Below, piece after piece: positions 3,594 through 30,017 of a stretch of 39,298 nt of DNA (within the stretch, counting starts at the first letter, position 1; every line of letters begins with the position of its first letter). The position numbers and the translations under genes were made by a program. This DNA is from Candidatus Woesearchaeota archaeon. Its GTDB lineage: Archaea; Nanobdellota; Nanobdellia; Pacearchaeales; GW2011-AR1. The notes below the pieces were generated by a model that saw only the letters and a program-made list of their open reading frames with translations, ran no database searches and was not told the DNA's origin. The stretch is from assembly GCA_964444095.1 (NCBI GenBank), contig CAYUEW010000002.1:1-39298 (forward strand). The letters run 5' to 3'.

Positions 3594-4439
3594 TTATCCT
3601 GCTCCCCCACCAATTAGATTTGCAACAGAGGAGACTATGAAAGAGAGTAGGATTAAAGCAAAAGAATGTTTTATCCCAGATTTGATAGTTCCTTCTGATA
3701 ATTTTCCAATAGCTAATCCTGTGAAAAAACCTTGGAATAAAAGTAAATATAAAAATGCACTAGAAATTTCTTCACTTCCTATAGAACTTCCCGCAGTTGA
3801 AATATTTGCAACACCTAATGCTCCAACATCTGCAATTCCAGAAATCATTGGAACAATATAAAATTGCATAATCAAAACTATCACAAGAAAAACAAAGAAG
3901 ATAATATACCCTTGTGCAATTAATGTTGAAATTGTAGATTTCCTCTCTTTCTTTAATTTGTCAGACATACTAACTGCTCTTGCTACTGCTTCAAGAATTT
4001 CACCAATATCTCCTCCCGCCCTCTCTGCTTGACCAATCAAAGTCAATGAACGAGAAATATTTTTATTGCCCACATCTTTTGCAAAAACTTTTAGTGCAGT
4101 ATTTAATGGAATTCCTAATGAAATTTGGTTTGCTAATTTATCAACATTCTGACTCAAAACTCCATAAGATTTCCCTTTCATATTTATCAAACTTTTACTA
4201 ATTGGAGTTCCTGTTTTTACACTTTCTACAAGGTTTCTTGCAAATTCTAAGAACATATCTTCTTTTTCACTTGCAATTTTTGATTCAGCCATCACAGAAA
4301 GAACAAAAGGAGAAGCCCCGAGAATTATTCCCAATCCAATCAAAAAAAGAAAAAACCGAGTATTCAATAATAAAAATGAAAGAGCAACAATAACTCCTCC
4401 AGCAATCATTCCAACATAGTGTATTTTTTTTAATTCCAT
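3594..4439 (-). CDS. Pilus platform membrane protein, single T2SSF domain (TadC/FlaJ-like)
   Basis: The layout is N-terminal TM helices, then a cytoplasmic T2SSF-like core (LEFARNLVESVKTGTPISKSL..LGIPLNTALKVFAKDV..IGQAERAGGDIGEIL), then C-terminal TMs. It sits 1 nt from the upstream platform gene. Confidence 0.7.
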   Translation of the reverse strand: MELKKIHYVGMIAGGVIVALSFLLLNTRFFLFLIGLGIILGASPFVLSVMAESKIASEKEDMFLEFARNLVESVKTGTPISKSLINMKGKSYGVLSQNVDKLANQISLGIPLNTALKVFAKDVGNKNISRSLTLIGQAERAGGDIGEILEAVARAVSMSDKLKKERKSTISTLIAQGYIIFFVFLVIVLIMQFYIVPMISGIADVGALGVANISTAGSSIGSEEISSAFLYLLLFQGFFTGLAIGKLSEGTIKSGIKHSFALILLSFIVSSVANLIGGGAG

Positions 4440-17305: not shown

Positions 17306-17457
17306 ATAATGTGGGAGACAACTCATCTCCAGAGAAGTCGTTATGAATAAAATATTTGTCGCTTCTCTAAAAGCTCGGGATTCGAAAACCTGCTTAGCAC
17401 AAAAATAGATTTGAATTTAAGCGACTTTGCAATTCTCAAAGAATTTAAATCCTGTCT
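17306..17457. repeat. tRNA-Leu-derived fragments in the tRNA-Leu 3' flank
   Basis: Three pieces are present. 17306-17320 (ataatgtgggagaca) resembles the tRNA 3' end plus flank at 17467-17482. 17378-17400 (ggattcgaaaacctgcttagcac) resembles the T-arm/variable arm at 17483-17507. 17448-17457 (aatcctgtct) is the exact reverse complement of 17478-17487. Confidence 0.55.
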
Positions 17458-17874: not shown

Positions 17875-17946
17875 AAGATTTGAACTTGCGACCTTTTCAT
17901 TACGAGTGAAATGCTCTACCACTGAGCTACTGAGGCAGGATTTTGC
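17875..17946 (-). tRNA. tRNA-Thr (anticodon CGU)
   Basis: The hand fold is GCCTCAG-TA-GCTC-AGTGGTA-GAGC-A-TTTCA-CTCGTAA-TGAAA-AGGTC-GCAAG-TTCAAAT-CTTGT-CTGAGGC-T. Length is 72 nt. Confidence 0.85.
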
Positions 17947-17947
17947 T

Positions 17948-18015
17948 CAGGGGTTCGAAGCTTGTCTTCGAGAGCGAAGCGAACTACCACTGAGCTACTG
18001 AGGCATTACGCGAAT
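17948..18015 (-). repeat. Terminus-duplication module at tRNA-Thr: 46-nt spacer plus exact 22-nt copy of the tRNA 5' end
   Basis: 17994-18015 is identical to 17926-17947 (ctaccactgagctactgaggca). The spacer 17948-17993 carries gctcag (17955-17960), the inverse of ctgagc inside the repeat. Read as RNA the unit looks like a collapsed tRNA: a CTTCG-CTCT-CGAAG stem with a 4-nt loop and no anticodon. Confidence 0.6.
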
Positions 18016-29074: not shown

Positions 29075-29574
29075 TTATTGACTTTTTGTTAATAATTTTA
29101 ATCCTTCTAAAATAGATTTGGCATCTGAAAGTGCATTGTGGGCTTTCTTTTTGTTTTTTACTCCAAATCCCCCTATTATCGTTCCACTACTGAATTTGTT
29201 AACATCGATCCCCTTATTTTTGAAAATTTTTCTGACATCATAAAACTTTTTTATTGGTTTTGATTTTAATTTATCTAAAATTTTTATTTCTCCAGATTTC
29301 TTTTCTTCTCTTCTTTTTGTCTAATCTCTTTTGCTACCTTTAATAATAACTCGTCTAAATTTTTCCTCAATCTTCCTGTTTCTATTAATTTGCACTTTTC
29401 GCTTGGAGGTCCAGATAAAGACGGAATTTGCACGCAATATATAATAGAATATTCTTTTTCATTTTTAAGATAATATATTTCCCCAAGATATTTTGAATAT
29501 TTTTCAGTGGTCTCTAAATGGTAAGTCTTTTCATCCCATTTTTTTAGTTTCACTTTGATTTTTTTTTGTTTCAT
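29075..29574 (-). pseudogene. DEDDh (DnaQ-like) 3'-5' exonuclease gene split by a frameshift
   Basis: Frame A (29284-29574) carries an Exo I-like YHLETTEK..GEIYYL, with His where Asp is expected. A different frame with no start codon (29078 to about 29300) reads ..KKFYDVRKIF.. (Exo II-like) and ..KAHNALSDAKSILEGLKLL..* (Exo III H-x4-D). The frames switch in an A-rich run at about 29285-29300. Confidence 0.5.
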
Positions 29575-29645
29575 AAAAAAGTAACTAAAAAATACTTTTT
29601 AACCGTTTATGTTTTTAAACATATATTTTTAAGATTATGGTTTTA

Positions 29646-29724
29646 AACGCTCAGAGCAGGAACCTGTGAAACAGGTCCTTGTGCCCTCCTTGGGGTATCG
29701 AACAATAATGGGTTCGATTAAAAA
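29646..29724 (-). repeat. Degenerate tRNA-Ser 3'-half-like fragment immediately downstream of tRNA-Ser
   Basis: The minus strand ..ATACCCCAAGGAGGGCAC..CACAGGTTCCTGCTCTGAGCG parallels the tRNA-Ser variable arm (ACCCTTCGGGGTAC) and its T-arm/acceptor (GCAGGTTCGATTCCTGCTCTGGGCG), with a 5-nt loop deletion. No 5' half is present. Confidence 0.45.
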
Positions 29725-29805
29725 CGCCCAGAGCAGGAATCGAACCTGCGTACCCCGAAGGGTCCGGCTTAGCAAGCCGGTGCAATACCATTATGCGATC
29801 TGGGC
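29725..29805 (-). tRNA. tRNA-Ser (anticodon GCU), type II
   Basis: The hand fold is GCCCAGA-TC-GCAT-AATGGTA-TTGC-A-CCGGC-TTGCTAA-GCCGG, then a 14-nt variable arm, then GCAGG-TTCGATT-CCTGC-TCTGGGC-G. Length is 81 nt. Confidence 0.85.
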
Positions 29806-29809
29806 ATAT

Positions 29810-29872
29810 GTTCCAATCGCATTCGTTTATTGAACGAGAGGGATTTATCCCGACTATGCGATCTGGGCATAT
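29810..29872 (-). repeat. Terminus-duplication module at tRNA-Ser: 45-nt spacer plus exact 18-nt copy of the tRNA 5' end
   Basis: 29855-29872 is identical to 29792-29809 (tatgcgatctgggcatat). The spacer carries ccaatcgcat (29813-29822), the inverse of atgcgat..gg inside the repeat. It also has an internal GGGAT-AA-ATCCC hairpin. Confidence 0.6.
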
Positions 29873-29918
29873 TCTTATAGAAATAAAATCCTTTTAAATA
29901 TTACTCTAAAACAAAAAA

Positions 29919-29994
29919 TAGCGAGGGCGGGATTTGAACCACGCGACCTCCGGGTTATGGGCCCGACGAGCACTCCAGGCTGCTCCACCTCGCT
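29919..29994 (-). tRNA. Initiator tRNA-Met (anticodon CAU)
   Basis: There is an A1:U72 pair (AGCGAGG/CCTCGCT). Three G:C pairs close the anticodon stem (GGG/CCC). The loop is CCCATAA. The T-arm is GCG(T)GG-TTCAAAT-CCCGC with one bulged base in my fold. Confidence 0.8.
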
Positions 29995-30017
29995 ATAATA
30001 AGTCCATCAAAATTAAA

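Follow-up and report, generated by a model that had tools for sequence, protein, structure and literature searches.

In a 39,298-nt stretch of archaeal DNA (the window, positions 1–39,298 of contig CAYUEW010000002.1), 63 bp at positions 29806–29868 lie between a tRNA-Ser(GCU) gene, encoded on the minus strand, and its putative promoter. A probable reading of this arrangement, to which we assign a probability of about 0.6, is that the 63 bp are a small insertion module lodged in the 5′ end of the tRNA-Ser gene and that the pre-tRNA is made with a 63-nt structured leader. The module begins with a second copy of the first 14 nt of the tRNA, and modules of the same build recur at the 5′ ends of tRNA-Ser genes in many genomes.

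Anatomy of the tRNA-Ser(GCU) locus and its empty counterparts

A first-pass annotation of the window had described an exact 18-nt repeat at the start of the tRNA-Ser gene, and the repeat is present as claimed: TATGCGATCTGGGCATAT occurs at 29792–29809 and 29855–29872, with a spacing of 63 nt, and comprises nt 1–14 of the tRNA and four upstream nt (ATAT). When up to two mismatches are allowed, GCCCAGATCGCATA has only two sites in 39 kb, the chance expectation being 0.06. A 45-bp spacer lies between the two repeats, and the inserted unit as a whole measures 63 bp (29806–29868). The inverse piece ccaatcgcat, said to lie 3 nt from the genuine copy, is found at 29813–29822, with 3 nt between it and the inner repeat. 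The features of the locus, ordered from the tRNA toward the promoter and beyond, are as follows.

29805 to 29725, minus strand: intact tRNA-Ser(GCU), class II, with discriminator G and no encoded CCA (Rfam, 63.5 bits; ARAGORN)
29792 to 29805, minus strand: inner repeat copy, which is nt 1–14 of the intact tRNA-Ser(GCU)
29806 to 29812, minus strand: A-rich, predicted single-stranded tail AACAUAU, abutting the true G1, with a predicted 5′-processing site at 29806/29805
29813 to 29822, minus strand: anti-sequence AUGCGAUUGG, the complement of tRNA nt 3–13, able to pair with either copy
29823 to 29839, minus strand: UC and hairpin 2 (UCGUU-CAAUA-AACGA), UCGUUCAAUAAACGA (predicted fold and double changes)
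29840 to 29854, minus strand: linker GTC and hairpin 1 (GGGA-UAAA-UCCC), GGGAUAAAUCCC (predicted fold; pairing kept in the alignment of window-type spacers)
29868 to 29855, minus strand: outer (decoy) copy of tRNA-Ser nt 1–14, GCCCAGATCGCATA, at the position of the tRNA 5′ end of relatives
29869 to 29872, minus strand: ATAT, the four extra identical nt found 5′ of both copies
29900 to 29892, minus strand: putative TATA box TATTTAAAA of the tRNA-Ser transcription unit
29994 to 29919, minus strand: initiator-type tRNA-Met (tRNA-iMet), used as synteny anchor (ARAGORN, Rfam)

The identity of the ATAT next to both copies is probably due to chance or to a match in initiator context, and it lies outside the repeat that is common to the family described below.

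The locus was compared with those of three relatives (L002, L032, and L041), in which tRNA-iMet is followed by 46–50 nt and then by tRNA-Ser(GCU). The corresponding distance in the window is 110–113 nt, that is, the distance in the relatives plus 63 nt. The 46–50-nt interval holds a transcription factor B recognition element and TATA box as well as a ttctata motif, all homologous to those of the window, and the sequence 5′ of the outer copy in the window is the homologue of the relatives' promoter. The proposal of the first-pass annotation that a 63-nt unit had been inserted or duplicated between promoter and tRNA is thus borne out by empty sites that are shorter by this very length. Across the orthologous tRNA-Ser loci, relatives either lack an insert or have one that is homologous and includes the repeat, and none shows an unrelated sequence of the same length that lacks the repeat.

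Positions 29736–29973 are identical in Logan contigs of three separate salt-lake metagenome runs, and an assembly artefact is excluded because three independent run assemblies agree. A covariance-model search (Rfam 15) of 29560–30010 at E ≤ 10 scored the two tRNAs alone, the leader having no family match even at this threshold; no C/D or H/ACA boxes were seen in the leader by eye, and neither these RNA classes nor known small ribozymes gave Rfam matches there. The RNase HII encoded next to the locus is 63–79% identical to proteins of Pacearchaeota, Woesearchaeota, and Nanoarchaeota genome bins, and judged by such similarity the host is a Pacearchaeota/Woesearchaeota-like archaeon of the DPANN lineage, which is known for odd tRNA genes. 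The gene content of the window is of the housekeeping kind, with aminoacyl-tRNA synthetases, archease, SMC, type IV pilus genes, DtdA, and EF-1A.

A family of modules at tRNA-Ser genes

To find related structures, a genomic set of 60 tRNAs, taken from the window and 47 genomic loci, was scanned for flanking self-copies of at least 11 nt. Exact self-copies of this length were present in the flanks of 17 of the 60 tRNAs, nearly all of them tRNA-Ser, versus one in a control with reversed sequences. A pattern scan of metagenome contigs, in which the allowed period was 49–79 nt, yielded at least 119 loci. At least 128 instances share one architecture, consisting of an exact copy of nt 1–14, one or two hairpins, a complement of nt 3–13, an A-rich tail, and the tRNA. 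Every Ser isoacceptor carries such modules, and self-copies more than 400 nt away from the tRNA are essentially absent. An upstream copy was seen at 85 of 134 tRNA-Ser genes versus 0 of 38 tRNA-Met genes, the former figure being inflated since most loci had been retrieved by the module pattern.

The boundaries of the repeat are sharp. Among the 128 listed instances, the 3′ boundary falls at A14 exactly in 70, one nt further in 46, and two nt further in 11, so that identity stays within tRNA nt 1–14, give or take at most two further chance nt, in 127 of 128. The 5′ boundary is at G1 in 45 instances and 1–9 nt upstream, in A/T-rich context, in 51; in 10 it lies inside a tandem array. Unit length is 49–97 nt overall (52–97 nt in the unbiased genomic set and 49–79 nt in the pattern scan). 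The acceptor part of the outer copy is mutated in 22 of the 128 listed instances, the outer copy being intact in 83%, and homologous spacers diverge by 16–35%. Slow neutral decay accounts less well for such integrity despite spacer divergence than does gene conversion or turnover, with a fresh duplication at each insertion.

The spacers fall into roughly nine sequence types that follow a shared plan: the copy of nt 1–14, the hairpin or hairpins, AAUGC(G)A followed by the complement of acceptor nt 7 to 3 (often to nt 1), the A-rich tail, and the tRNA. The window-type spacer was also found in L136, L094, L119, L106, L054, L100, L116, L087, and L093, where it sits on tRNA-Ser genes that differ in acceptor stem and anticodon. 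Contig L116 has modules at two tRNA-Ser genes that are 1.1 kb distant from each other; the two modules differ by one base in the hairpin region and also differ in their acceptor-facing parts and tails. In L136, the outer copy and the tRNA it belongs to agree at 14 of 14 positions, and the anti-sequence still fits another acceptor. The number of modules per gene ranges from one to at least three; some loci have tandem arrays of identical units, and spacer types are mixed in tandem within arrays in L012, L025, L054, L093, and L069. These mixed arrays, together with the occurrence of the same type at different tRNA-Ser genes, suggest that modules have been inserted repeatedly and site-specifically, with duplication of a 14-bp target.

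Within approximately 1.09 Mb of loci, specific spacer cores occur solely at tRNA-Ser 5′ ends. Scans of IMG/VR with the type-A core and with a generic module pattern gave no matches, and a scan with GCCCAGATCGCATAGTC gave six, all in unrelated high-GC coding DNA, so no viral or plasmid carrier of the module was found in that database. Terminal inverted repeats are absent from the modules: GTCGGGAT... at the left end and ...GGAACATAT at the right end are not inverted copies of each other, and other spacer types are alike in this respect. No account of such modules was found in the literature searched. Taken at the level of sequence, the family is widespread in DPANN archaea, specific for tRNA-Ser, and apparently undescribed in that literature; the emphasis accordingly moves from the local duplication of the first-pass annotation to a site-specific insertion module belonging to a large tRNA-Ser-specific family. 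One idea, which we put forward tentatively and hold to be less likely than its converse, is that the modules represent a new class of miniature non-coding site-specific elements. Such elements would create the 14-bp duplication by a staggered cut, use their complement of the target (nt 3–13) as a guide, be retargeted as acceptor stems evolve, and be mobilized by an enzyme encoded elsewhere in the DPANN genome.

Promoter placement, the functional copy, and the predicted leader

The position of the promoter relative to the two copies was assessed using tRNA genes with and without modules. TATA-like hexamers start at −31 to −28 from +1 for 49 non-Ser tRNAs (66 matches) and at −35 to −29 for 50 tRNA-Ser genes without modules. 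At 100 module loci, 70 TATA-like matches start at −34 to −30 from the outermost G1, with a peak of 30 at −31, while the inner tRNA has 10 matches within 50 nt of its G1 and none at −33 to −26. At −1, the consensus base is T for start sites, and the inner tRNA is preceded by A, with G at +1 in both. In the window, the TATA-like element that had been placed 23–24 nt 5′ of the G of the partial copy is indeed there, TATTTAAAA lying 23 nt from 29868, and the inner tRNA has an AT-rich stretch, TTCAATAAA, at −29 to −21. The claim that the TATA box is placed for the partial copy, with nothing but a weak AT-rich stretch serving the real tRNA, therefore holds both in the window and in the 100-locus positional test. 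Over the window, with its four tRNA genes, and the loci L001–L172, tRNA genes of this clade have TATA-like hexamers that start about 30 nt before +1, and T at −1. Because the fixed promoter placement of the clade applies to the outer copy, we infer, and strongly, that transcription starts at 29868 and that a 63-nt leader RNA is made.

As to which copy serves the tRNA, 21 distinct cases were found in which the two copies differ, and the 3′ acceptor strand could be located in 16 of these. In all 16, the inner copy pairs with this strand at 7 of 7 positions (or at 6 plus one G·U), and the outer copy is mismatched. Because the inner copy is thus the pairing one, the outer copy is a decoy and not an exon, in keeping with the decoy 5′ acceptor strand of the first-pass annotation, and on the basis of these comparisons it is dispensable for the tRNA and free to decay.

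The window leader (62–67 nt) is predicted to fold into a three-way junction with two hairpins and a closing helix, CCAGAUCGCAU/AUGCGAUUGG, at −18.2 to −19.5 kcal/mol (z −2.4 to −3.5). This closing helix corresponds to the helix of approximately 10 bp that had been suggested between the upstream copy and the inverse piece. In type-B spacers, double changes preserve the pairing of the hairpin at 5 of 7 pairs (AU/UA 15:7, GC/AU 12:9). Window-type hairpins have double changes at 2 of 10 pairs, AU↔GC in hairpin 1 and CG↔UA in hairpin 2 of the window-type alignment, and in a variant from run X11 the stem of hairpin 2 is longer by one C–G pair. The anti-sequence aligns to the complement of nt 1–14 with a score of 13.0 (reversed control, 8.8) and covers nt 4–13 in more than 75% of modules; its acceptor-facing part varies with each tRNA (CCAG/UUGG, UUGA/UCAG, CUCA/UGAG, CCAC/GUGG, and others). 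It fits the inner copy better in seven cases and the outer in six, with nine ties.

Several neighboring genes in the clade bear on whether a leader could be removed. The genes for tRNA-Ser(GGA) and tRNA-Ser(CGA) are 1–3 nt apart in L006 (3784–3946) and L009 (3575–3795) and 19–24 nt apart in L015 and L021. Such intervals are too short for a promoter, which entails that these genes are co-transcribed and then cut apart and that 5′-end processing must exist in the clade. The unstructured A-rich tail of the module suits, by its predicted lack of pairing, a cut of the RNase P type.

Based on these observations, the following course of events may be envisaged. Insertion would duplicate the first 14 bp of the tRNA gene in the manner of a target-site duplication, such that the original 5′ end stays beside the promoter and a fresh copy adjoins the tRNA body. 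RNA polymerase would start at the outer copy (29868) and produce tRNA-Ser with a 63-nt leader, of which the decoy strand, the two hairpins, and the nt 3–13 complement, being synthesized first, would fold on themselves into the three-way junction. The junction would hide the decoy from the 3′ acceptor strand and leave the real tRNA free to fold, after which a 5′-end endonuclease, presumably RNase P, would cut in the A-rich tail at 29806/29805. The outer copy would have no role as part of the tRNA. For the folding order, the processing enzyme, and the mechanism of insertion, this scheme is what we infer.

A number of results weigh against the insertion-and-leader reading, most of them concerning the RNA. 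For the transcript from 29868, the conformer with leader junction and cloverleaf has a predicted energy of −57.8 kcal/mol, and an alternative conformer, in which the outer copy forms part of the acceptor stem and the inner copy is paired with the anti-sequence, has −58.2 kcal/mol and makes up 87% of the ensemble. Across 73 modules, the true acceptor stem has a mean probability of 0.14 for the wild type, 0.81 when the decoy is deleted, 0.02 when the spacer is shuffled, and 0.95 for the tRNA alone. In these calculations the decoy is a real competitor that the anti-sequence offsets only in part, and since the equilibrium fold favors the wrong conformer, the model requires co-transcriptional (kinetic) folding. 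The 92 distinct leaders have a mean z of −2.55 relative to shuffles, and their complementary strands have the same value; since both strands fold equally, selection may have acted on DNA hairpins instead. The departures of the anti-sequence from a perfect complement (92 modules) lack the G·U wobble signature of a sense-strand RNA helix, a comparison confounded by A-richness: G→A accounts for 61 of 152, giving C·A in the sense RNA and G·U on the opposite strand, and sense-wobble changes account for 9. Selection on DNA hairpins or on the other strand, helix weakening, or A-pressure (mutation bias) are possible causes of the G→A excess. Neither the window nor 424 kb of related loci contained an RNase P RNA, a search of low power given that less than one match was expected there, and the window held no candidate for the inserting enzyme. 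Finally, the run searches returned DNA-like metagenome assemblies only, with no RNA or 5′-end information.

Among other explanations, a positively selected regulatory leader deserves the most attention. The succession of copy, complement, and copy (X–anti-X–X) would then be a bistable switch that tunes pre-tRNA-Ser folding, or the excised leader would act as a stable small RNA. This would account for the two near-isoenergetic conformers and for the in silico effects of decoy deletion and spacer shuffling, which raise and lower, respectively, the true-acceptor-stem probability; it also agrees with the covariation of structure and anti-sequence over more than 90 distinct modules and with outer copies that are mostly intact next to diverged spacers. 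We nevertheless consider it rather unlikely, as the module is absent altogether from many close relatives, copy number varies from one to at least three with mixed types, outer copies decay (22 of 128 listed), and neither a strand nor a wobble signature of an RNA helix is seen.

The arrangement could also be the footprint of an integrative element, for which a tyrosine integrase of a virus or plasmid would have duplicated an attachment (att) core, nt 1–14, before the element was deleted down to 45 bp. Partial tRNA copies at element ends are a known source of archaeal tRNA gene fragments (PMC9897764), and in run X9 a relative carries an insert of 350 nt together with a duplication of 40 nt of the tRNA 3′ end. 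The tight range of unit sizes (49–97 nt), unlike the spread expected of deletion remnants, makes this explanation improbable, as do spacers that form conserved structured families with covariation, the lack of far copies in the loci, and the absence of any spacer core or module from IMG/VR contigs. Moreover, Pfam searches of 39 of the 41 listed open reading frames found no integrase in the window, nor a transposase, Cas1, or PolB.

We give about as little weight to the idea that the inner tRNA has a weak promoter of its own in the spacer (TTCAATAAA), the outer copy yielding a short separate or abortive transcript. The AT-rich stretch in the window does lie at roughly the right distance, and comparable stretches were noticed by eye in some modules; however, TATA-like hexamers are almost lacking before the inner tRNA family-wide, the −1/+1 consensus there is A/G and not the T/G of start sites, and no oligo-T terminator lies between outer copy and tRNA.

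A non-canonical intron is less likely still. Here, the outer copy would be exon 1, and 63 nt would be spliced from the D-loop at 14/15 by splicing endonuclease and RtcB, which would suit an organism with leaderless tRNA transcription. In its favor are the promoter placed for the outer G1, the preference of the equilibrium fold for an acceptor stem made with the outer copy, the archease gene of the window, and the occurrence of introns in tRNA-Ser genes of relatives. The role of exon 1 is ruled out for the outer copy by the 16 of 16 clear cases in which the inner copy alone matches the 3′ acceptor strand and by the failure to draw any bulge-helix-bulge (BHB) structure. In this analysis by hand, the central 4-bp helix would have to join two identical 4-mers 63 nt apart; at register 14, CGCA is not self-complementary, and at register 11, GAUC is without flanking helices.

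A one-off tandem duplication, slippage, or chance repeat, although slippage can create short direct repeats and some loci do have tandem arrays of identical units, is refuted by a repeat far beyond chance (0.06 expected), by G1/A14 boundaries that recur in at least 128 instances from many genomes, and by a spacer that is not derived from the flanks and has homologues in other genomes.

Related modules and comparison with known systems

A related unit, a downstream counterpart of the module, follows the tRNA-Ser(GCU) gene of the window.

29645 to 29724, minus strand: downstream module, with T5, a hairpin TCGAAC..GTTCGA, a variable-arm-like hairpin, a hairpin GGACCUG..CAGGUUCC, a tRNA 3′-end copy, and TTT

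The 3′-end copy, TTCCTGCTCTGAGCG, equals the last 15 nt of the tRNA with one mismatch. Homologous downstream modules in L001 and L002 copy the 3′ end of their own tRNA, similar units occur in L012, L023, L025, L037, and L042, and the oligo-T terminator tends to lie beyond the outer 3′ copy. In the X9 contig (2999 nt), an identical tRNA-Ser is followed by 350 nt, a copy of the last 40 tRNA nt, and a downstream module.

Partial copies are also found elsewhere, in part at other isotypes. Immediately 5′ of the real tRNA-Thr(CGU) gene, 17937–18005 of the window (minus strand) form a degenerate 68-nt copy of it, which matches nt 1–21 exactly, preserves the anticodon stem through double changes, and has its anticodon loop shortened to 4 nt; CUGAGC (the complement of nt 10–15) and an 8-nt tail follow. 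Possibly, this is a module like those of tRNA-Ser at a further isotype. The 3′ end of tRNA-Leu(UAA) is repeated, over 13 nt and with one mismatch, 162 nt downstream of that gene (17308–17320, minus strand), and this copy is followed by a T-run; a T-arm-like sequence, GCAGGTTTTCGAATCCCGAGC (approximately 17380–17400, minus strand), lies between the two. Approximately 145–290 nt 5′ of tRNA-Ser(GGA) in L009, there is a tRNA-Ser(GGA)-like copy whose acceptor stem is mismatched and whose T-arm region holds an insert of about 60 nt. Partial copies such as those of the tRNA-Ser modules can mislead tRNA gene finders and 5′-end calls in DPANN metagenome-assembled genomes.

Introns of 40–100 nt are present in tRNA-Ser genes of L006 (about 250 nt downstream of tRNA-iMet), L092 (5876–6013), L113 (5755–5875), L027, L031, and L035; Rfam tRNA matches to the intron-bearing genes are 121–181 nt long, and ARAGORN missed some of them. 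At five metagenome loci (e.g., L067, L088, and L090), ARAGORN calls a tRNA-Ser whose anticodon, AGA (loop CTAGAAA), is an unusual one in archaea. L069 has an Rfam match to RT-16 RNA at 3932–4133 (98.6 bits), about 4.7 kb from its tRNA-Ser module; the RT-16 motif is associated with reverse transcriptase genes.

If the leader is made, organisms built for leaderless tRNA transcription would produce some of their tRNA-Ser with a structured leader of 50–80 nt that holds a perfect competitor of the tRNA's own 5′ strand, which raises the matter of tRNA 5′-end processing in DPANN archaea and of how such a pre-tRNA escapes misfolding. The predicted leader resembles a bacterial attenuator (1:2 versus 2:3) in that a middle segment has two identical candidate partners, and which of the two pairings forms would depend on the order of synthesis. 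It differs in that the module has no evident sensor (ribosome, tRNA, or ligand) and in that the outcome would be tRNA folding and not termination, the likeness being one of folding predictions. With BHB introns and split or permuted tRNA genes, the module has in common an extra structured sequence in a tRNA gene that carries a complement of the neighboring exon, whereas it has no BHB, the tRNA is complete and uninterrupted, and the upstream fragment is dispensable. A split gene of the Nanoarchaeota type was rejected for the same reason, the tRNA-Ser at 29725–29805 being complete (63.5 bits).

In Nanoarchaeum equitans, tRNA genes have a promoter fixed 26–27 nt upstream, transcription starts at +1, and RNase P is absent (PMC10100707). 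The tRNA genes of the clade studied here are similar, with hexamers that start about 30 nt ahead of +1 and with T/G at −1/+1, and the same placement is seen for the outer copy. Unlike in N. equitans, start site and tRNA are set apart by a module, the RNA of which would have to be removed as a leader, and tRNA genes that are 1–3 nt apart in relatives require 5′ processing.

As an event in DNA, the module would belong to a known kind, the insertion targeted to a tRNA gene with duplication of the gene's end. Miniature inverted-repeat transposable elements, which have terminal inverted repeats, target duplications of 2–10 bp, and dispersed copies, were rejected as a model in view of the absence of terminal inverted repeats, the 14-bp duplication, and the restriction of copies to tRNA-Ser 5′ ends. 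Closer parallels are the att duplications produced by archaeal viruses, plasmids, and genomic islands, such as PYG1 of Pyrococcus yayanosii, in which the insert is 9–23 kb long and carries an integrase and the repeat is about 44 bp (PMC9897764). In both cases, the target is a tRNA gene whose end is directly repeated around the inserted DNA, the intact gene being restored beside one repeat. In contrast, the inserts of the modules are 35–65 bp long, non-coding, and furnished with conserved hairpins, the repeat is exactly 14 bp, and the module lies within the transcription unit, between promoter and tRNA.

The casposase of A. boonei produces a 15-bp target-site duplication at the 3′ end of tRNA-Pro and tandem insertions (PMC5137440). 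Casposon and Cas1 integration thus share with the modules a fixed duplication of about 14–15 bp at the end of a tRNA gene, a strong site preference, and repeated insertion at the same site that leads to repeat–insert–repeat arrays resembling CRISPR arrays. The modules, in turn, target the 5′ end of tRNA-Ser, are tens of bp long, carry a complement of their target, and have no terminal inverted repeats; with neither Cas1 nor PolB seen in the window, the analogy is one of mechanism only. If mobile, the modules would be very small site-specific elements that produce a duplication of fixed length, 14 bp, and contain a complement of their own target, and as such they would bear on the origin of targeted DNA insertion in casposons, CRISPR adaptation, and guide-dependent recombinases.

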